Source: Octopus vulgaris (taxonomy: Eukaryota). From it: a DNA stretch of 64,000 bases. Location of the stretch: NCBI GenBank assembly GCA_951406725.2, contig OX597832.1:40982001-41046000 (forward strand), read 5' to 3'. The notes under the pieces were generated by a model. The model searched no databases and was not told the origin of the DNA. It saw nothing but the letters and a program-made list of their open reading frames with translations. Positions 3,171-56,261 of the stretch are shown here, in pieces. Both the position numbers and the translations under genes were made by a program. Numbering within the stretch: position 1 is the first letter of the stretch; each line of letters starts with the position of its first letter.

Positions 3171-3662
3171 TATACATTCAACAATATAAGGAATGGCCAT
3201 ATAGGACATTCGACTCACTAGAAAGAGCAGCCAAAACTCATACCGCTAAATAGTTGTAATTCTGCAATAGAAAGAGAAATAAAAACGTTTACCCCTTTCA
3301 TCTCTGGACTATGCATAGTTTCGGCAAAACTTTGGCAAATGAATTAATTAAATTAAATTAAATTCATTTACATCGTCAGCAGAGAGCCTAGGACGAGTAT
3401 ATGTCCACGAGGCTATGGTAAAAAGCCTCCAGTCACATATGCCCTAAATTTTCAAATCTTACCGCAATCGCGCGCTATACTCAGCAGCAAATATAAACTG
3501 CTGATTTAATTTCTAGTGAGTCGAATGTCCTATATGGCCATTCCTTATATTGTTGAATGTATATTATATAGTCTTTGACTATTTTTTCTTTCTCACTTGA
3601 CCGCTGGTAGTGGAAAATTCTTTCTAGAATTTTTTGCTTCCCTTATATTTATTAATTATTAA
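3171..3662. mobile_element. Fold-back, HHR-bearing element (Penelope-like, non-autonomous) inserted in the (TA)n tract of a SINE
   Basis: ~54-bp perfect inverted repeat (3171-3224 vs 3510-3563), asymmetric ~100-bp extension on the right, internal HHR, flanked by TA runs that split the SINE at 2960-3847. Confidence 0.65.
3301..3385 (-). ncRNA. Type I hammerhead ribozyme motif, canonical CUGACGA core
   Basis: Minus strand: UCUCUG (stem I) CUGACGA, long AU-rich stem II, GAAAC-UAUGCAUA-GUC then CAGAGA (stem I partner). Stem III ACUAUGCAUAGU is palindromic. Confidence 0.75.
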
Positions 3663-4009
3663 TATATATATATACATATATACGACAGGCTTCTTTCAGT
3701 TTCCGTCTACCAAATCCACCCACAAGGCTTTGGTCGGCCCGGGACTATAGCAGAAGACACTTGCCCAAGATGCCACGCAGTGGGACTGAACCCGGAACCA
3801 TGTGGTTGGTAAGCAAGCTACTTACCACACAGCCACTCCTGCGCCTATATCTATTATGAAATACTTTATTCAATACTTATTATGAAATACTTTACAAGTT
3901 ACTAGAAATGGCAGCCAAATCTAACTTAAAATTACATCTTAATGTCTTATTTGCCATCATTCCATGTTATTTGTATGTAAGCTATCTTCTTTTTTTTTTT
4001 ATCAACTCA

Positions 4010-4103
4010 ATCACTCTTCACTGCCTGTGCATATTCTATGTGTTTTTTGTCTGATGAGTTGTAGTGTGCCAGAACACTGTATACAATAAGTTCATTATTA
4101 TAT
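4010..4103 (+). mobile_element. Short CR1-type LINE 3' tail fragment
   Basis: gatgagttgtagtgtgccagaacactgtatacaataagttcattatta matches the tails at 60280-60340 and 34014-34070. Confidence 0.55.
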
Positions 4104-4278
4104 TCCTAGCAGGGCCCATGAATATTTCACGGAATTAATGGTAACCTTCTTAGGTTTACTTCTGAAAACTTTAGCCAAAAACCCAAAAGCATAGCTTGTG
4201 TTGTGTCTGTATCAAAAGATAGTCACTCATCTGTTAATCATTGAAATATATAATTTCTTTCTTTCTTTCATTTCACAG

Positions 4279-4407
4279 GAAATTAGATTTTATTTGGGTG
4301 ATCACGATTTTAAGAAGCCAGAAAACGGTCACAGAAATGGCATCGGCTATACTGGAGATTCTATAGAAGATATTTCGGATAATATTGAATCAATGTCAAG
4401 ATTGTAG
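4279..4407 (+). CDS. Terminal coding exon of the same unidentified gene
   Basis: Acceptor ttctttctttcatttcacAG (4277-4278), phase 0; EIRFYLGDHDFKKPENGHRNGIGYTGDSIEDISDNIESMSRL then TAG at 4405-4407. No family recognised from this C-terminal fragment. Confidence 0.75.
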   Translation, partial: EIRFYLGDHDFKKPENGHRNGIGYTGDSIEDISDNIESMSRL

Positions 4408-4591
4408 CAGAAACACCGTTTTATTTTAGATGTCAATACTCTAATATCACATGATCTTCTGCTGGATCATGGCAGACTTGTACAGAAAAGTAGATTTTTT
4501 GGTTGAGAGGGAAATAGAATCTGCCCCCAATTTGTTCAGTCAATTCTCTCATTTTTTTCTAATATTCAGAAGAAATAATATTGTTTTAAAA

Positions 4592-4939
4592 TATTACAGA
4601 GATGTACTTGCATAGCAAGTGACCTGATCTGAGATTGTGTGCTGGAACGAAAACAATTGCAGCGTGGAAGGTGTTTGTAAGCCATTTAAGAAACACACAA
4701 AAACTGTTAGATTCACTTCAACATTTAAATTTAATTTGTCAAAATATTTTGTCGCTTTGAGACCATGACCTGTTCACTGACAAAACTCTATGCAGCACGC
4801 AATTTTGTCAGTGAACAGGTCGTGGTCTCAAAGCGACGAAAATATTTTGACAAATTAAACTTAAATGTTGAAGTGAATCTAACGGTTTTTGTGTGTTTCT
4901 TAAATGGCTTATAAACACTTTCCACGCTGCAATTGTTTT
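4592..4939. mobile_element. Fold-back HHR-bearing element, copy 1
   Basis: Arms 4650-4785 and 4803-4939 with a 17-nt loop; direct repeat attgttttaaaa at 4580-4591 and 4932-4943; homologous to 19426-19620. Confidence 0.75.
4804..4854 (+). ncRNA. Type I minimal hammerhead motif with G3-C8 covariant core
   Basis: UUUGUCA (stem I) GUGAACA g GUCG-loop-CGAC GAA AAUAUU U UGACAAA: all three helices pair, C3-G8 is swapped to G3-C8, and stem III is palindromic. Confidence 0.7.
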
Positions 4940-5755
4940 AAAACAGAATAACCAAAACAAACTCATTTTCGCTATTACTGATTCCATCTTTCAGGATTCT
5001 TCAAAAATGATTACTTGAAAGTTGGATTTATTGATTTTCTTATTTATCCGATACTTTAGAAATGGTCAAATTAAAATTATCAAAACTGTCGATATCCAAC
5101 CTCATTTGCTCAACCGTATAATGTCTGTGGTTAGAAAGTCCCAGTTGCTATTGGCATTTGTGGATATACACAGACTGGGCAGACATGGACTTTAGATACT
5201 GACTGAGTAGGCATAGTATATATGTTGGCTGGTTAGACACAGTGTGTAGATGTTAATTTGATTGATACAGTGTAGTTGCTGAGTAGATAGAAAGTGTAGT
5301 TTCCCCTCTCTCTGTCTTTATATATGTATATATGTGTGTGTGTGCATGTGTGCGTGTGTGTCACAGTCTTCAGGGTTAACAGCTTATATATGACTGTAGA
5401 TATCGACTAGATAGACGATGCAGAGTTTGGATACAGAATAGATGTGTATAGATATATCTGTAAATGTTGGCTGCATAGAGAGCGCGTAACCGTTGAACAG
5501 ACTGAGAAACTGTGATAGTTGGCTGGGGAGGAGTCTTATAGATATTGTCTAGATAACGGGTGGCAGTATATGCAGACAAGAAAAACACATAACCGTTACA
5601 CTTCAAGAGTTTGTGAGACATAACTGTGATCCTTCATAACTTGACTTCTTCTCCTGGACATCATTCCGCCGATCCCAGAAAGGATGATTTCAAATTCCAA
5701 TCTTTACTGGAAACCATGAAGTACCAAATCTCATGTTCCCAGACAACCTTTTAAT

Positions 5756-5830
5756 AATAAAAGTCTCACCAAAAACTCAGTAAATAATGAATGTTTCAAT
5801 TTTATATTTTTATATTTTCTGTAAAATAAA
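5756..5830 (+). promoter_or_regulatory. Candidate polyadenylation signals of the + strand gene
   Basis: AATAAA at 5756-5761 and 5825-5830, the first canonical hexamers I found after the stop at 4407, with T-rich sequence after the first. Confidence 0.45.
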
Positions 5831-6344
5831 TTCTAAAAATGTAGAACAATGGTGGTGGCATAGCAGAAACACTAAAGTGATGGGCTCGAGATGTTTAGTA
5901 TTTTCCCTTTGATGTTTTGAGTTCAATTCTCATTAGGGCTGACTTTGCCTTTTGTATGAATGCATTGCAGTTATATATAACATATGACATAGAGACATGT
6001 GGCCTTTGAATCGGTGCAGTCATTCCTTGGTGCACGTAATGCTTCCCCACAAATGTATGGCTTTTTTTGTACCAGAGTCGGAAATCAATATATCACAGAA
6101 AATTTAATCATTACGAATGCAGCCTGGATTAAAACTGAAAACTATGACTGCCACTGTAGACTACTACGCAGAGAATCATTCAGACAAAAGATTAACCAAA
6201 CTAACCAGAAACAATTGAAAAAAAAATCTAAAATCAGTTTGAATCTGGACCATTTGGTGAAATTAAAACAATAAAGATTTTTTTTTTATAAAAAGATAAT
6301 TAAACATAAATTTAATAAAATTTCTACATTGTGTTGTTGTTTTT

Positions 6345-6480
6345 GGAGGGAACCTGTGGAAGGGATAGACTCAGGAAGATGTGGGACAAAGTACACCTCA
6401 CTGAGGAAATGACAAGGGGCCAGGAGTTGTGGCAATTTGCTGTACTTGAGAAAATGCAACAAGCTAAGTAAAATCATGGT
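6345..6480 (+). mobile_element. RTE-clade LINE 3' remnant
   Basis: EGTCGRDRLRKMWDKV..LTEEMTRGQELWQFAVLEK resembles the RGRPRKTW...DR..WR C-terminal motif; homologue on - at about 51780-51912. Confidence 0.55.
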
Positions 6481-7114
6481 CATCCGTACCAGTTATGCAC
6501 TGGGGTCGATGTAATTGACTTAATCCGTTTGTCTGTCCTCGTTTGTCCCCTTGTGGGTAATAAAGAAACAGGTATTATCTCCTTATATGACTCTAATACA
6601 TATATGGTACAGTCACCTGTACATTGTAATATCACAGTCTATAATACTAGCACCTATATGGTACTATTAGTAAATCTGACATTATCACCATATTTGGTAT
6701 TCTTAATATCACCACCGGTGGCACGTAAAAAGCACCCACTAAACTCACGGAGTGGTTGGTGTTAGGAAGGGCATCCAGCTGTAGAAACACTGCCAGATCA
6801 GACTGGGCCTGGTGCAGCCTCCTGGCTTCCCAGACCCCAGTCGAACTGTCCAACCCATGCTAGCATGGAAAGTGGACGTTAAACGATGATGATGATTGGT
6901 ATTCCAACTATCGACCATTTTTTGTACTTCATATCTTGTTCTCTTCAACAAATATGGAGAAATCCTGTTTGCATTATCTGTTACTTTCAATATAAACCAT
7001 ATTTGGTACTCGCAGTATAAACTATGTTTGGGAGTGTCTTAATATAGTAGCATTGCCATTTATGGTACAAACCTTTATAACATCCTCTAAGCAATATCTG
7101 TCCTTGTCTGCAGT

Positions 7115-8331
7115 TTAATCTGAAGTTGTGGATACAAACAGTGCAGTGGATGGAATCTCTTCAAATCCTCCTGCACCCGTCAAGTGATTCTGTACATGTT
7201 TCTTAAGTTCTTCGTACTTGCTAAAGCGATGATAGCAAAGAGCACATGCAAACGGACGTTCAGCGAAATCATCAAAGTCGGAGACTAGTTTAACATATCT
7301 TCCCCTCTGGGGAGGCTGTACAAGAGATGCAGATAATGAGTCATTGGTTGAGGAACCTTCAGATGAAATGAGGGCACACTGAATTTCTTTGTCACAGCAC
7401 TCTACCAAATTCTGACAACCGTGATCAAGGGCTGCAGTCTGTTTTGGTTCAATATTTACATCAGAGTCTGTCGATTTTCTTTCATCAGCCTCTAAAGTGA
7501 TAACCCCAAGTTCAATTCTTTCCTTCCCTCTAATGTTTTCAGTTCCGATGCCCCCTTGATTATCATTATTATTGTTGTTGTTGTTGCTGTTGTTATTATT
7601 ACTATTGTTGTTGTTGTTATTATTATTTCCATCATCAATATCGCTGTCGTTATTGTCATCGTCAATCTCAATATAATTAAGTTCTCCAGGACTTTGGCTC
7701 TCTTCACTTTGGAAGTTGCTAGCTGAGTTGATAAAACCCGAAGTATTTCCAGATACGTCGCTAATTGTCAGTAAGTTGTCTGTAAGGATAGTGGCAGCAC
7801 CAGGCAATGACGAGTGCTCGTTAGTGCCAGTATCAGCTGATAAATTACTGCTGCCGTTGCCATACTGCTGCAACATATTTTCTTCAAACTGCACTTGCTG
7901 CAACATGGAAGAGGTGCCCATTGTGTAGTGGTACATGGTCCCTTCATGACTGCTGATATGTTTGAGGAAATCCTCCTTAGTGGCAAATTTAGTCGGGCAG
8001 TAGGGACACAGGAAACTTTCAGGCCTATCATCTTTGCAGACAACAGGTTCAGATTCTAGCACAGGGTAGACATTATATACTTCAGGTCTCTCCTCTTGGC
8101 AGATAATGGGTGCAGTTGGGTAGGGAGTATATATTTCAGGTTTGCACTGAGTAAGATTGATAACATCAGTAGAACTGAATGAGGAGTTAGTCTGAGAAAC
8201 AGCCTTTGGTTCATTAAGTTTCCTCTGTATGTTGAAGTTGTGCAGGTAACTATGCTGAGCGGGGTCTTTATCTTGAATATTGTCTGACACAGGTGCACCA
8301 TGTTGAAGTTTCTTGTGATGAGATAAGTTAC
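7115..8331 (-). CDS. C2H2 zinc-finger protein, last coding exon (end of finger 11, fingers 12-13, Asn-rich tract)
   Basis: Acceptor tttttcttAG at 8333-8332. Splicing restores FKCDLCHMPFICQG-NLSHHKKLQH. Further fingers FLCPYCPTKFATKEDFLKHISSH and FACALCYHRFSKYEELKKHVQNH; stop TAA at 7117-7115. Spliced CDS 2757 nt = 918 aa. Confidence 0.92.
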
Positions 8332-8719
8332 CTAAGAAAAAAATACAATTTTGATAAAGAATCATTATTAGAATCATCATTATTTCAAAAAGATTATAGT
8401 ACACCAATATGTGTGTATATGTATGCATGTGTGTGTGTGTGTATAAAAGAGAGAGAGAGAGGGGTGAAATGAGGTACCAAGACCCCTGTATGGAAGTTCA
8501 GTGTTCTATAATGCTAATGATTCTGCTAGCTCACTACCCTGGAACACATGAAATAATGATAAAAAGGAAAGACTGCATAGTGAAGGAAGGAAAGACTTTG
8601 ATCATAGGGCTGTTAACCTGGGAGTTGACCCTTTAGTATTTAACCAAAACCCGACAAATAACGTGAGTTCATGGCTGTTTCCTGCACCAGCTTCACATAA
8701 CCAACCCCAGCCCATCCAA

Positions 8720-9175
8720 TGTACTTTGGATCGCAGGACAGCCTGCAGTGCTTACCTTGGATTGTAGGGTGACCTGCTGTGCTTGAGGAGACCTGTTGAG
8801 TCAAGTACATCACCATCAACATCATAAAATCAAATGGAAATTGTAGTTGTGATACCTGTGCTGGAGGTGCGTAAAAAGCACCATCCGAATGTGGTCGATG
8901 CCAGCACCGCCTTGACTGGCTTCTGTGCCAGTGGCACGTAAAAATCAGCAACCAATCGTGACCATTGCCAGCCTCCCCTGGCCCCTGTGCTGGTGGCACG
9001 TAAAAAGCACCCACTACACTCACGGAGTGGTTGGCATTAGGAAGGGCATCCAGCTGTAGAAACGCTGCCTGATTAGACTGGAGCCTGGTGTAGCCTCCTG
9101 GCTTCCCAGACCTCGGTCACCATCCAACCCATGCTAGCATGGAAAGCGGACGTTAAACGATGATGATGATGATGA
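8720..9175 (+). repeat. Family C repeat with internal tandem subunits and (GAT)n tail (RTE-associated)
   Basis: Repeated gtggcacgtaaaaagcacc units ending ccatgctagcatggaaagcggacgttaaacgatgatgat; copies at about 6713-6895, 28905-29220 (-), 33270-33525, 34725-34915, 45338-45472 (-), 47312-47590 (-) and 63060-63420 (-). Confidence 0.8.
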
Positions 9176-9450
9176 TATCCAGCCCAAATATTCTCTCTGT
9201 TTTATATTCAAACTGGGCAGATCCTGCCTCTCACGCCTATCCTACAATTTCATTTTGAAAACATAGAATCACATCATCGAAGTCTCAATGCTACAAGATG
9301 AATAAATAAACAGATAAAGAAACATTACATTTGACAGAGTAATGTGGACACTAAGGGGTCAAATGACAACAACACAGCATCAGAAAGCAAGACAACTCAA
9401 AAAGAAACAACAGGGACTATGCTCAGAATAATACTCCGAAATAGGTTTAC

Positions 9451-10990
9451 CTTGACATATGAAAGGCATGTGACAAAGATCACACTTGAAAAGAGCAATT
9501 GCATGCTTCAACACATGTCTCTGAAGAGTGATTTTATAACTGGAAGCGTATTGGCAGTGTGGACATTGGTAACGCTGTTCTTTGTTAAACGTAGAAGTAC
9601 TTTCAGCTGTTGAATGATTCCGTTGCTTGTGTAAAATTAAATTTCCTTCCCGCATAAACGGCATCTGGCACTCATCACACCGATATTTGGCAACGCTGTG
9701 CCTTAGAACATGGCGGTTGAACGTTGATTTGTGGTCAGTTTCATAAGAACACATATCACATTGGTATTTACAGGATCTGCCCTTCTGCTTCTCAATATTT
9801 TGAGGCTGGCATTCATGTTGTAGTTTGTGTTGCATGAGATTTTGGACATTCCGAAATGAAAGGTTACACGTAGAACAAGAGTAAAGGGTCACATGATGTT
9901 TTCTAAGATGATTATCCAACAGAAACTGGTTGGATGTCTTGAAAACACATTGAGAACATTGCAAAGTATCTTGTTGACCTTCACAATATTCTTGCCTGTT
10001 GGCATCGGTACTGCTACTAGAATCGGTTAAAGTATTCCCAAGATTCAGTTGCTCTCCTGTACTCAATGAAAACTGTGTTTCAATATGAAATTGAAGAATA
10101 TGAAAATCAAGTATTGATTGGTCTTCAAATATTTTTGAACAAAATGTACATTTAAATTTCTCAGTTTCCAGTTTTATCTGAGATCTGCCGCTGTAATTAC
10201 ACTCTGCTTTATTTTGATCTGAGCCTTTCTTGTCAATATTTTGCAGATACAAATACACGGTATCAGAAGGGCTGCGTGAGCCTTCTCGTGATCTCTTGTT
10301 TTGATTATCAGAATCAGAAAAAGCATCGTGAGCTGTTTTGGATGGTACTTCTATGTTAGAAGTTTTGCTGAGGGCAACCGATCTATTGGCATCTGGATGC
10401 CAGGTCTTCAAATGAAGTTCCAAAGTTTCAAAATTATTGAAAGGAATGTGGCAGATGTAACAGAGATATTTGGCGAGTGGGTGTAATTTCAGGTGCCGGT
10501 TTAAATCAGACTTAGATCTTGTGCCATACGGACACATTGAGCAAGAATATCTGTGTCTCATGCTGGACATCTGCTCTGAATGATGTTTCTGCTTGTGGTA
10601 CATGACAATCCCCATACTCATAAATGGCATCTTGCAGATATCACATGTGAACGAACATTTACTGTGTTTCTTAGAATGCCGGTTTAAATCGGATTTGTAG
10701 TTTGTCTTATACGCACAAATAGGACACTTGTGTCTTTTGGTCTCTTGCAAAGACTTCAAATTGATCATCAAAGATGGCTGTCGGTCTCTCGATGTCTGTT
10801 GATTGAGAATAAAAATATCTTTTGCTAGAGTTTCTGAAATATTTCCTTCATCAGACGAGGGAGTCAGAGCTTGATTTCTGCTACATAAAACACTATTTGA
10901 TGATGGTAGCTCTTCATAACAAAGCTGAGACATGTTATTATCCAACCAAACTCTGTCAACATTTTCATTATTAGGAGAGAGGGCAGCCAT
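9451..10990 (-). CDS. C2H2 zinc-finger protein, first coding exon (10 complete fingers and the first part of finger 11)
   Basis: ATG at 10990; repeated CxxC-x12-Hxxx(x)H motifs such as HKCPICAYKTNYKSDLNRHSKKH and YRCDECQMPFMREGNLILHKQRNH; donor CAAG|gtaaac at 9450, phase 1; exon acceptor cttttcAG at 11209-11208. Confidence 0.93.
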
Positions 10991-11369
10991 ATTTGATACA
11001 GTTTATAGAGAGTAGATATGGCTTACAATATTTTTCACAATATCTCTCTACCAAAGGAAGTTACCATAAATTTTATAAATCATTTTTATTCGAGTCTGTA
11101 TAAGAGATAAAAGCATCAACTTTATTTCTACTGTTTCCATAGAATTTCTCCAACATAATGTTGCTCCATTTCAGTACAGGAACTTGAAAGATTTGTCAAT
11201 AACAGACCTGAAAAGATATATACACAAATAAGTATTATATAGGCATGTGTACAATGCATGCAAGAAAAGAGTTTAATTTAATACATTCCATATCTACATC
11301 CTCTTGTCGTTTTGTTATTTGCTATATTTAATGTTTGGTTATTAATGTTCAACTTTTGATGTTCAAATT

Positions 11370-19160: not shown

Positions 19161-19425
19161 AAAAAATAATGCACCTATCAAACATATATATACTCATGTT
19201 TTGAGTTCTATTATCCTATATATGTACTATTAAACGTATGTGCGAGTACGTTGTGTCAACTAGTAGTCTTGATGAAGGACACCAAACTCTGTTGAAAGAA
19301 ACCAGGAATCTTTTGATTCCTACAAAAACGAGGAACTTTCAATGGTTGAAAAAAATGTGGTCAGTGAAGTTACCTCCCTTGGTCCAGTGTATGCGTATAT
19401 ATATATTTTTTTTTATTCTAAATTT

Positions 19426-19620
19426 CGGAGATGTACTCGCATAGCAAGTAATTTGATCTGAGATCGTGTGCTGAAACGAAAACAATTGCAGCGTGGAAGG
19501 TGTTTGTAAGCCATTTAAGAAACACACAAAAGCCGTTAGATAAACTTAAATGTTGAAGTGAATCGAACGGCTTTTGTGTGTTTCTTAAATGGCTTACAAA
19601 CACCTTCCACGTTGCAATTG
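19426..19620. mobile_element. Fold-back element, copy 2 (HHR-containing centre absent)
   Basis: Same 5' sequence as the 4592 copy; arms about 19482-19541 and 19562-19621; 12-bp flanking duplication tattctaaattt (19414-19425 and 19621-19632). Confidence 0.75.
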
Positions 19621-20931
19621 TATTCTAAATTTATAATTCTCTTAAATTATTATTCAATTTAGACCAAATCCACTCTGATACATTGTTTATCTATATTAGT
19701 GTTACTCAAGGTGAGGCATTGCCATATTTTAGTTACTTCGGGGAGGAGCATAAGGTAGTAACAAAATAAAACTTATAATAAAGTTACAATAAAGTTTTAA
19801 TTAAAACTTTTAAAAATAAATATACACAATGTCCACTCGTGGTTGGGCATTGTGTGTGTGTGTGTCAAATCGAAATAGTGGAGGATGAGAAACTGTAGAA
19901 TGGACCAAAACTTTCAAGCAATACGAGTTATCTCCCTTGCCTAACTTCTATTTGCAGATATCTTTCAAGAAAGTTTTTATTTTACTAATTGCTTGGATGA
20001 TATTATGCTTGAACGAAAGTATTTCCGATGAACTATATAGCATATGTGATACACATACTGTAAAACAACTATATCTACAGTTTGTTTTAACATCTCGAAT
20101 TGAGCCTGACTTAATTTTAATGTTTCTTAAGTGTATTACTAAATTGGGAACCAAATTCACGACCAGAAAATATCAAAGTACTCCAACGGTATTATTATTA
20201 TTGTTTAGAAAATTTACAATCTCTGGTGGGTGTGTAACGCTCACTCACTGAACACACCAGAGAATATGTAGCTCTGGTGGCGAAAGCTGAACCTATGAGA
20301 AGAGACAGAATGGTGACAAGAAAGGTGACGAGCTGGCAGAATTGTTGGCACGCCGAGCGAAATGCTTAGTGGTATTTCGTCTGCTGCTATGTTCTGAGTT
20401 CAAATTTCGCCGAGGTCGACTTTGCCTTTCATCCTTTCGGGGTCGGTAAATTGAGTTACTAGTTACGCACTGGGGTCAATATAATCAACTTAATCCGTTT
20501 ATCCTTCACTGGCCCTAATCCAACCATGCCCAGTCGTCTTGTTCCACAGTAATGGTGAGTGGAAATAAATCACTGACCTCCCACTGCATTATTCACACAA
20601 TGATGTTCATTCTCCAAGTGATTAAAATATTCTTCTCTTCTAAACTCAATTCTAACTCAATGCTAAGACAATTAAATACCGTTATTAATTATAGCACAGG
20701 GACAGTTAGATACAAGCCTAGAATTATATTTTCCATTTACTGTATCTAATTATATAATTTACTGTATAAAATTTACTATAATCAAGGTAATTATCTAATT
20801 AACAAGTTAGGCCAATTATTATTAATCAGTGACCTAATCTATATATGTGTGTGTGGTGTGTATTTGTATACAAAAAAAAAACTAACTGTAACTGATAATG
20901 CTGCATCATCATCATCACACACATATATATA

Positions 20932-48052: not shown

Positions 48053-49318
48053 TCAGACCACTTCCTGGTGTATATTACGAAAGTTTACCTCTTTCTCAAT
48101 TAAATATTGCACTAAATTAACAAATGCAGATGGATTTGATAACAAGTCTAATGACTCTTGTAGTTCTTGTCTCTTTGCTATTGACTCAACTGTCTGTTTC
48201 AGATATTTGGGACAATGAGACAGAATCAGCGGACAACTACAAATGTCTTTTTTGGTAATACCAAGACTAGTTAGGTACTCAAAATTGGTAGTTAGTGTTA
48301 CACGGTCTGTAGTTACTAAAGGAGCAATATGGTAAAGTTTCTTCTGCAGAGTTCCAGTATCAATGCCGATTAATTTTGGCAGGAAGACTGTTGATTTGGG
48401 ACTAGGAACTCTCAAGGGAACATTTTTACATGAAATGATGTGAATGATGTGTAACAGACTGACTTTTTCGATTCCAGCTTCTTGCGCCTTGGCATACGCC
48501 TTCTTCAATGTGTCTGTTTTGTGACGTAGAATGTAGGTATGGCTTCGGAGATGCTCAATCGGAATACCGACTGATAGGAGGAAGTCGACTCTTGGCTTCA
48601 GCGTAGTAAGACGCCTGTTCTCTAAGTAAGACATTTTTTCAGCAACAGAAATGGATACATTGAACAGTTTTGCTATATATTCATAGCGATTTTGACTTCC
48701 ATCAAGAACTTTCTGTTCAGTATTGTATTTATTCAGGAATCTCTTAAACTGTTTCTCAGAGATGGCAAGAGACGAAATAGGGAAATCGTTTCCCTCTTGG
48801 TGTACTTTCATTCTTTCGATGCGTCTCTTTAAGGTTTCAAGACTGTAAGAGAGCAGCTGTGGATATTTAATGAAGTGCTCGGCTTTCACATCGAAGCTTT
48901 GAAGATATTTGACCTTTTCTGTAAATGCCGGCATGTTTCTCAGTTTCTTCAGCAATGGAATTTTGGTAATAATTTCATGGAATTCCATTTCGTTGCACTT
49001 CAGAACATCCATCATGTACTCTGTGATGGTGTTGTAACCTTGCATTAAATCCAAAACTGGTTGTAACCGCTTCAAATGAGCATTCGATACTTTAGAGTGA
49101 ACAAGTTTTAACATCTGCACATTGATCTTTCGGTGACCATGTTGCTGCAACCGGGTAGCCCTGTGCATTAGCTCAGCTTGTGGGACCTGCAGGATTTCGG
49201 GACATTCTTGGACTTGATCTAAAGAACAACCAAGGACTTCGAGAGTTTCCAGTTTGCTTTGTAAGCCGTGTCTGCTGAATGGAGCTTTTGGTTTCACAAG
49301 ATCAAGGAATGAAATAAC
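48053..49318 (-). CDS. mTERF-family (mitochondrial transcription termination factor-like) protein, main exon
   Basis: Acceptor tattttAG at 49320-49319, phase 0; ~30-aa Leu/Pro-rich mTERF-type repeats such as KVKYLQSFDVKAEHFIKYPQLLSYSLETLKRRI, RVDFLLSVGIPIEHL and NFEYLTSLGITKKDICSCPLILSHCP; stop TGA at 48055-48053; AATAAA at 48027-48022. Confidence 0.88.
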   Translation of the reverse strand, partial: VISFLDLVKPKAPFSRHGLQSKLETLEVLGCSLDQVQECPEILQVPQAELMHRATRLQQHGHRKINVQMLKLVHSKVSNAHLKRLQPVLDLMQGYNTITEYMMDVLKCNEMEFHEIITKIPLLKKLRNMPAFTEKVKYLQSFDVKAEHFIKYPQLLSYSLETLKRRIERMKVHQEGNDFPISSLAISEKQFKRFLNKYNTEQKVLDGSQNRYEYIAKLFNVSISVAEKMSYLENRRLTTLKPRVDFLLSVGIPIEHLRSHTYILRHKTDTLKKAYAKAQEAGIEKVSLLHIIHIISCKNVPLRVPSPKSTVFLPKLIGIDTGTLQKKLYHIAPLVTTDRVTLTTNFEYLTSLGITKKDICSCPLILSHCPKYLKQTVESIAKRQELQESLDLLSNPSAFVNLVQYLIEKEVNFRNIHQEVV

Positions 49319-54376: not shown

Positions 54377-56215
54377 GGGGTGGTTGTGTGTCTGTGTTTG
54401 TCCCCCTAGCATTGCTTGACAACCGATGCTGGTGTGTTTACGTCCCCATCACTTAGCGGTTCGATAAAAGAGACCGATAGAATAAGTACTGGGCTTACAA
54501 AGAATAAGTCCTGGGGTCGATTTGCTCGACTAAAGGCAGTGCTCCAGCATGGCTGCAGTCAAATGACTGAAACAAGTAAAAGAGAGAGTAACCATGTGAT
54601 TTCAAGACAAGGAAATACACACACGATGGGCTTCTTTCAGTTTCTGTCTTCCAAATCCACTCATAAGGCTTTGGTCAGCCTGAAGCTATAGTAAAAGATA
54701 CCAGTCACAGGTACCATGCAATGGAACTGAACACAAAACCATGTAGTTAAGAAGTAGACTTATTAATTTCAAGTCATACCAGTGCCAATTTATTGAGAAA
54801 ATCAGTTAATTAATACCTGCTTACATTAGTGATGATATCTCAGTAAAAAGTTATTTCCAGCCCAAGTGTTCATTCCACTTGAGTTTTGAACAAATGCCAT
54901 GTAATATGACCAAGCATTTGTAAAAGTGAAATCAGTATTTCAATGGTGTTGTTTCTAAATTTAAAATTAAGGAGGAAATGTAAGTAAAGATCCAGACAGA
55001 CGGGAAAGTGAAACAGGATAATAGTCAAGAGTTAATACAAATCTTATATCATAAAAGAGCTGATCTCCATTTGTCTGTAACAACATCTGTGTAGGGAGAG
55101 GGAAAGGGAGGAGGAGAAGTTATTGTTGAGACAGAAATACAATGAAAGAGATAGTGTGAAAGATAAACAGCTAGTATTGTCGCCTTAGTAACTAAGTTTT
55201 GATTACAAACACAGGAATTTTAGGTGCAAGTCTGTCAACACAACGCAACAAACTTCAAAAGAAAGTTTTTTTTTTTTTTGGTTGTGTGTGTTTCTGTATG
55301 TCTTTCAACATAGACAATGCAACACAGACTTCAAAAAAATACTTTCACTTTGAACAGTTTATGAAGGTACATACATGATTTACAAATATTTTTACCAGCA
55401 GCGTAAAATATGAAAAGAAGACAGACAGTATTTCTGTTAGCAAACAGACCTTTCTTTTAGCTTCTCTTGATAAAATACTGAATGGACATTGTAAGCAATG
55501 TGAGAACACACAAGAGAAAAGAACTGAAGAACTGTGTTCAATATCCTTAATAAATCTTCTTTCCATCATTGAAAAGTGAGATGCCACAACATGACATGAC
55601 CGGATAAACAAGATGTCTTGACATTTGTTCAGGTGCAGAGAGGGTTGTATGGTTGAGAAGCTTGCTCTGAAACTACATGGTTTCAGGTTCAGTCTCAGTG
55701 CATCACACCTTAGGCAAGTGTTTCTATTATAGACCCAAGTCAACTAATGTCCTGTGAGTGAAAGTGGTAGATGGAAAATGTGTGGAAGTCTATCATGTGC
55801 GTGTCTACGCCTGCCTATGTACATATCTGTGTGTGTGTACATCTGTGTATGAGTGCGTCTGTGTGTGTGTGTTTGCGCCCACCACTTGGCAACAGATGTT
55901 CACTTCTTTACTTCCAAGTAACTTAGCAATTCAGCAAATGAAAACGATAAAATAGGTATCAGGCTTTAAAAAAAAGTACTGGGGTCAATTTGTTTAACTA
56001 AAACCCTTCAATGCAGTGCTCCAGCATGGCCATAGTCCAATAATTGAAACAAGTAAATGATAAAAGATTTGAAAACAAAAAAGAATATTGCTAACCATCT
56101 TTATTCCAACCCGCCTGAGATAACCTTTGCTTCCAATACAAAATCTCTCGTTTTAAAGATTTCAAATTTTGCTTAAGACTTTAGGAATGGGAACCCAGGT
56201 TCAAAATTTCCCCAA

Positions 56216-56261
56216 GACACCTGAAGAAGGCTGGAGGGTATATCAGCCGAAACGTTGTGTT
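56216..56261 (+). ncRNA. Type I minimal hammerhead motif (Penelope-type)
   Basis: GACAC CUGAAGA a GGCUG-gagggtatat-CAGCC GAA ACGU U GUGUU: stem I GACAC/GUGUU, 5-bp stem II, palindromic ACGU stem III. Confidence 0.75.

Follow-up and report, generated by a model that had tools for sequence, protein, structure and literature searches.

Does the hammerhead motif that follows the last coding exon of an octopus gene serve as a switch of that gene, or did it arrive as part of a mobile element? The question concerns positions 4592-4943 of a 64,000-nt stretch of the Octopus vulgaris genome (contig OX597832.1, positions 40,982,001 to 41,046,000, forward strand), referred to here as the window. A preliminary description, made from the letters alone, had placed a hammerhead together with its disabled antisense copy in a probable 3' UTR and had left two options, a neutralised insertion or a stability switch that depends on editing or unwinding. 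The hairpin and the motif are properties of a transposon and not of the host gene, and the locus itself is ordinary. With high confidence, we interpret it as a Penelope-like retroelement (PLE) that inserted once, as a very short piece, into what is likely the 3' UTR of an NHE1-like gene; its G3-C8 hammerhead is predicted to be zipped into the hairpin and likely stays uncut.

The insertion and its host gene

The following features were assigned (window coordinates).

4279..4407, + strand: coding part of the last exon of an NHE1-like sodium/hydrogen exchanger (protein match, tblastn, RNA contigs)
4408..6290, + strand: probable 3' UTR containing the insertion, end inferred near the AATAAA at 6270 (RNA contigs, polyA-signal scan)
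4580..4591, no strand: left copy of the target-site duplication (TSD), 12 bp (flank comparison)
4592..4797, - strand: long arm, a 5'-truncated PLE copy with the pLTR end and the first 31 ORF codons, ATG at 4685
4592..4649, - strand: PLE 'tail' of 58 nt, corresponding to ORF codons ~13-31, in this arm only (parent ORF comparison)
4735..4785, - strand: decayed hammerhead copy, one nucleotide missing at GAAA and stem II altered by a CpG-type change
4786..4802, no strand: head-to-head junction of the two copies, which is the hairpin loop; its position varies among loci
4790..4939, + strand: short arm, a 5'-truncated PLE copy that begins at the probable start site of the element and reaches ORF codon 12, ATG at 4904
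4804..4854, + strand: minimal type I hammerhead, core pair G3-C8, intact as judged from the sequence; cleavage predicted 3' of position 4847
4932..4943, no strand: right copy of the TSD, the first 8 nt of which also match the element end
19422..19625, no strand: another insertion from this family, likewise with the long+short inverted build and a 12-bp TSD, without hammerhead

A 41-aa query from the last exon matched the C-terminal end of P0003, a protein that its source labels as NHE1 of Octopus sinensis, at 100%, and tblastn with P0003 yielded 14 collinear stretches across the window and the 40 kb preceding it. Judged by these protein matches, the TAG at 4405-4407 closes the last exon of an NHE1-like sodium/hydrogen exchanger, in agreement with the stop codon described at 4407. 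The 41-aa exon gave no domain match in Pfam. Downstream of the stop, the first AATAAA is indeed located at 5756, and ATTAAA occurs at 4854 and 5070.

RNA cover was taken from the strand-blind contigs of four runs that are probably RNA (the RNA type was guessed, as it is not on record). The contigs begin at 4277, the exon boundary, and the preceding bin was without cover in these runs. Unique flanks on either side of the hairpin were covered in all four runs, with contigs extending 27-44 nt into the element. Downstream cover ended at 6272-6275 in two runs and at 6392-6400 in the other two. The proposed transcribed 3' UTR is thus probable, but no contig crosses the whole hairpin. For this reason, and because the contigs are strand-blind, the position of the hairpin in the NHE1-like 3' UTR is rated as likely only. 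The insertion is seemingly present in runs bearing four different organism labels and is therefore not private to one individual; fixation would be compatible with later co-option. C2H2 zinc-finger ORFs at 7115-11002 (- strand) are convergent with the exchanger gene, and their 3' UTR could contribute RNA cover near 6300-6400. Further along the window, 48053-49318 (- strand) contains a 421-aa open frame with an mTERF domain.

The ~136-bp hairpin was confirmed. Its arms (4650-4785 with 4803-4939) show ~96% complementarity, interrupted by five mismatches and one gap in ~137 nt, and the fold of the hairpin region had z = -33 against 100 shuffles. A mir-192 match in the Rfam search of 3500-6500 was rejected as a generic hairpin (40 bits, below the gathering threshold of 54). 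Both arms contain the start codon of the parent ORF, and comparison with that parent identifies 4592-4939, at the level of sequence, as one PLE insertion in which two 5'-truncated copies of the pLTR and ORF start are joined head to head. The earlier reading had not recognised the feature as an interspersed repeat of high copy number.

The repeat family and its inverted arms

A first look with the right arm returned 1,531 candidates within the same genome, and a 19-mer across stem I and the core had 6,842 exact genomic matches (control, 0). The family unit spans ~207 nt; its 5' end is sharp, and its 3' ends fall at two places, ~u148 and ~u207. For a position sample, the first 30 matches listed on C1 were reduced to 25 distinct loci by dropping three same-place matches and two segmental duplicates; 13 of these loci were hairpins. 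With 14 further hairpins among the top matches and the window hairpin, 28 hairpins were studied. A long arm was combined with a short arm in 25 of them, the remaining three had a damaged arm end, and neither long+long nor short+short hairpins occurred among the 28. In the position-sampled set, the long+short build was found in 12/12 cases (p = 0.0005 vs even chance). Extrapolated from the start of one chromosome, the genome would contain roughly 3,000 hairpins.

A TSD of at least 8 bp flanked all 14 non-microsatellite hairpin loci (mean 12.1, compared with 5.4 for mismatched flanks), and the other 13 of the 27 hairpin loci sit in (TA)n. Arm-to-arm divergence was 3.7% at the window hairpin, which is mid-range for the family (0-10.7%). 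In its loop II sequence, the window copy agrees with an older subfamily, the endonuclease (EN) DNA of which is 82-90% identical to that of the young family. An integrity test was passed by 88 of 136 sampled arms covering the motif, and the coexistence of one intact and one broken arm is therefore ordinary decay. The mirror arm does carry the defects described previously, a missing G at GAAA and a G>A change in stem II. These lesions have no bearing on catalysis, because the host mRNA contains the left arm in antisense orientation. The idea of an antisense copy disabled on purpose found no support; the inverted arm is the normal product of PLE insertion, as in the 13/25 position-sampled loci. 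A different arrangement was seen at locus L181 (1878-7319), where the short unit occurs three times in direct orientation, ~2.6 kb apart, with no EN match.

The autonomous parent encodes a PLE-type reverse transcriptase (RT) with a C-terminal GIY-YIG endonuclease in an ORF of ~1,070 codons. A recurrent 5' extension of the unit, recognised among 100 of 184 matches listed, had 517 exact genomic matches. At locus L188, the unit is preceded by ~1.1 kb of 3' UTR and an RT(YVDD)-GIY-YIG ORF. PF01541 scored above cut-off in the parent ORF, and Atlas look-alikes of the protein comprise RVT_1, HTH_animal, and GIY-YIG. The linker before the EN reads CQSNCAVC in P0001/P0002, in line with the CX2-5CxxC pattern of Neptune/Nematis elements. 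The unit leads directly into the ORF start MAYKHLPRC at loci L223 and L224, so that an arm comprises the end of the pLTR together with 12 (short) or 31 (long) initial codons; both loci contain a partial pLTR tandem that includes the ORF start. The complete layout of L224 is an inverted truncated copy, a partial tandem, the ORF, and a pLTR. Further PLE characters are the inverted, 5'-truncated head-to-head copy with a one-ended tail (window, 25/28 hairpins, long copies) and the short TSD in an AT-rich or (TA)n target. The best-matching parent copies are 95-99% identical in the RT, one of them with 1,025 open codons. The parent protein shares 21% identity with a second PLE protein of the same genome.

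A recurrent 3' extension (among 100 of 181 matches listed) was rejected as the parent, as it proved to be a Helitron-like carrier. The carriers (L061-L068 and L075-L103, e.g., L100 and L066) form an older non-coding family with copies ~70-85% alike and an inverted-type insertion of the unit. This family ends ~1.2 kb downstream with a GC-rich hairpin and CTAG before T, a Helitron-like 3' end. Its 29 exact junction matches with the unit could suggest that the unit itself is a Helitron or MITE-type DNA element with a chance likeness to a hammerhead. We consider this practically negligible: the unit is continuous with the PLE ORF at both ends in parent copies (L188, L223, L224), the 12-bp TSDs and the variable centres of inversion are typical of PLEs, and the inverted-type insertion held by the carriers marks them as secondary.

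In its organization, the octopus family resembles the EN+ Neptune/Nematis-type PLEs (PMC8557442 and PMC3846280, each in part). Shared features are a single ORF for RT and C-terminal GIY-YIG with a CX3CxxC linker, a pLTR with hammerhead and the first 12 codons in partial tandems, and a head-to-head inverted 5'-truncated copy with a one-ended tail and a TSD in AT or (TA)n targets. The layout of L224 is the one drawn in PMC8557442 (in part), and in the excerpted PMC3846280 the pLTR likewise holds the first 12 codons, with the tail extending further. Differences from these elements, as far as the same two sources go, are a tail of 58 nt rather than 30-40, DKS instead of DKG, a long microsatellite-rich 3' UTR, and the length of most copies, which is only 150-350 nt. 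The Anolis Poseidon element PAc is similar in having two internal RT start sites in the 5' end of the ORF that define the tail, and in its AT-rich target, of which both strands were nicked and extended in vitro (PMC11167929). Non-LTR retrozymes are likewise short, non-coding, pLTR-derived PLE units with a type I hammerhead. They form head-to-tail tandems, however, whereas the octopus short copies are single or head-to-head and were traced to an autonomous PLE (bioRxiv 10.64898/2026.07.22.740005, in part). Head-to-tail tandems of 150-400 nt monomers, which characterize retrozymes, were absent among L001-L060.

The following mechanism would account for the inverted build. The PLE protein would nick both strands of an AT-rich target ~12 nt apart, and each 3'-OH would prime reverse transcription within the element RNA, one at about ORF +35 and the other at about ORF +92. 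With an RNA started at the pLTR promoter as template, both cDNAs would end by run-off at its 5' terminus, after at most ~150 and ~207 nt, respectively. Run-off would often add a G, copied from the cap, and the two cDNA ends would then be joined head to head. Immediately before the unit 5' end, 10 of 21 arms have a G in place of the parental C, although some of these G residues may derive from the opposite arm. The sharp 5' end at a TCAG/ATGC boundary (e.g., window 4789-4797) may represent an initiator or a splice acceptor. We prefer a capped start site over a splice acceptor, because no shared upstream exon appears and because of the extra G in 10/21 arms.

The long+short rule is best explained by each start site being used once on one RNA, an explanation that we hold to be somewhat better than even. 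Inverted arms could also arise by self-priming or snap-back, e.g., on an antisense template, an origin proposed in PMC3846280 (in part). Snap-back would equally produce head-to-head arms and would agree with the short palindromes at some junctions. It is possible but clearly less probable, since many junctions are asymmetric, one or the other arm showing a deletion or an overlap, and the outer ends fall at two fixed ORF positions, resembling the two RT start sites of the Anolis element (PMC11167929). For priming at two nicks, the same in vitro study observed no strand difference in start sites, a result that does not by itself predict a strict long+short rule; such pairing is evident in the octopus genomic record, whereas the PAc assay did not report it (PMC11167929). 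How inverted insertions and tails of PLEs form is described as still open in PMC8557442 (in part).

The G3-C8 hammerhead core

As previously described, 4804-4854 contains all elements of a type I hammerhead: stem I TTTGTCA/TGACAAA, a core reading GTGAACA, stem II GTCG(T)/(G)CGAC, GAAA, the palindrome AATATT, and a UUU triplet, with one extra G. The Watson-Crick 3-8 pair of the core, GAAA, NUH, and stems I and II of a minimal type I motif are thus all present. The Rfam hammerhead models gave no match at E ≤ 10 in 3500-6500. When positions 3 and 8 were left free, the pattern had 5,048 matches; among the 100 of these listed, inspection by eye gave 95 with G3-C8 and none with C3-G8. The 3-8 pair was G-C in 162 of 183 arms and C-G in none. 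The G3-C8 core is family-wide, and this recently active family has retained it through subfamilies with EN DNA only 82-90% identical to that of the young family. The canonical core in the same context had a single genomic match, an unrelated sequence that is not a family member.

Variation of the motif was analyzed in 221 arms from 163 loci. Departures amounted to 3.3% in the core, 4.9% in stem I, 10% in the CpG-rich stem II, 21% in loop II, and 8.7% downstream, and polymorphic columns numbered 6/9 in loop II vs 0/11 in the core. Common stem variants were wobble-compatible (U-A>U-G, 26; C-G>U-G, 32), and only six two-sided stem changes occurred, all at CpG columns. The pattern fits what selection on the motif in master elements with neutral decay in the copies would leave, as distinct from formal covariation.

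Hammerheads with other 3-8 pairs are present in the same genome. U3-A8 hammerheads occur in other PLE copies (L111-L130 and L146-L149), among them a family in which many 781-aa ORFs are open; 14 such motifs were listed. Within the window, 56214-56260 (+ strand) is a canonical C3-G8 minimal hammerhead that probably belongs to another PLE family, and at ~1500-1550 of L247 there is an isolated, canonical-looking type I hammerhead with C3-G8 and a GUC triplet, unrelated to the family described here.

The G3-C8 pair had been presented as established in Penelope-associated hammerheads, a statement for which we found no support in print. Natural U3-A8 hammerheads are reported (PMC4209133 and PMC3088659, each in part), and it is U3-A8 that the metazoan PLE minimal hammerheads of PMC4209133 (in part) have where the octopus family has G3-C8. 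As engineered changes, C3G/G8C partially restores cleavage (PMC11167929), and G3-C8 appears as a variant in PMC3884650 (in part). Judged against the literature searched, in which natural G3-C8 was not found, the core would be new relative to known PLE hammerheads; the survey of Lunse et al. may hold natural cases. That survey reportedly covers ~150,000 PLE-associated hammerhead variants.

Predicted fate of the motif in the transcript

An isolated arm folds stem I, with a probability of 0.1 for hammerhead stem II. Forcing stems I and II in the context of the hairpin costs 68.8 kcal/mol, and in folds of the growing chain, pairing of the arms precedes completion of the motif. A dimer through helix III is worth only -0.2 kcal/mol. 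Minimal PLE hammerheads showed no cleavage as monomers and weak cleavage as dimers (PMC4209133, in part), the Anolis PLE hammerhead requires its protein (PMC11167929), and related motifs need a dimer or a protein (review PMC6765202, in part). Since a cost of ~69 kcal/mol would have to be met and a partner is needed, the folding models make self-cleavage at the locus unlikely. In the mRNA, the left arm would be made first and would pair with the emerging right arm, leaving a passive long duplex as a probable ADAR substrate. The idea of a Penelope-type minimal hammerhead sequestered by a long duplex is thereby supported. Contig depth was greater downstream than upstream of the hairpin in 3/4 runs. 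Cleavage could cause such a step, but 3' bias or an RT block would account for it just as well, and as contig depth cannot rank parts, it was given no weight as evidence.

A-to-G mismatches over the hairpin had been suggested as a check. Such mismatches reached 22% at 4903 and 10% at 4913 (run X2, in which contigs mix family copies), vs 1/199 and 0/197, respectively, in sampled genomic arms; they exceeded the genomic sample in one or two runs only. A4902G was discarded as editing evidence, because it is a genomic variant found in 34/199 arms, older copies included (1/153 in a smaller 160-arm sample). A weak signal thus persists at 4903 and 4913 but not at 4902. Self-folding repeats, among them lizard Penelope copies, are heavily edited, and hyper-editing in octopus is very high (PMC5625713, in part), so that ADAR editing of the hairpin is plausible by analogy. 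The Harbinger repeats edited in Xenopus are likewise palindromes of ~200-350 nt that form their own ADAR-type duplex, whereas the octopus palindrome is made anew at each insertion and its editing is only expected (PMC5625713, in part).

The insertion could be a passenger by origin and its 136-bp duplex, as opposed to the ribozyme, could since have gained an influence on the mRNA, by way of ADAR editing, retention in the nucleus, or proteins that bind dsRNA. The near-perfect duplex, the precedent in self-folding repeats, lizard Penelope, and octopus (PMC5625713, in part), and the weak A>G signal in the RNA contigs speak for such an effect. We regard it as a minority possibility, given that the contigs mix family copies, that A4902G is genomic in 34/199 arms, and that the arms diverge without a sign of selection for pairing.

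Far less probable is a co-opted self-cleavage switch, gated by editing or unwinding, that controls the stability of the NHE1-like mRNA. It would draw on a sense-strand motif that is intact, probably transcribed in the UTR, and found in four runs, and on the A>G changes at 4903 and 4913 in some runs as compared with their near-absence in genomic arms. Opposed to it are the 69 kcal/mol barrier, the need for a dimer partner with none in cis on the strand, and a weak, all-AU helix III. Editing would presumably also hit core adenosines. An intact arm, moreover, is the common state (88/136), and since about half of thousands of loci have the same hairpin, some insertions into 3' UTRs would be expected by chance. 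Most probably, the insertion is a passenger and not a switch of the gene; the option of a neutralised insertion fits a PLE insertion with a duplex-sequestered motif, and the stability switch found no support. It would be equally surprising if the G3-C8 hammerhead were active with a protein and the few thousand self-masking hairpins were editing- or helicase-gated cassettes coupling octopus ADAR to mRNA stability.

The significance of the finding lies with the element family. Natural G3-C8, U3-A8, and C3-G8 motifs offer natural support for an interchangeable 3-8 pair, and descriptors that demand CUGANGA overlook several thousand motifs. Of value alongside the G3-C8 core is the strict long+short arm rule, which bears on the inverted insertions of PLEs. 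With their fixed outer ends, 12-bp TSDs, and long+short rule, the thousands of tiny insertions in the octopus genome provide a cheap, genome-wide test of twin priming.
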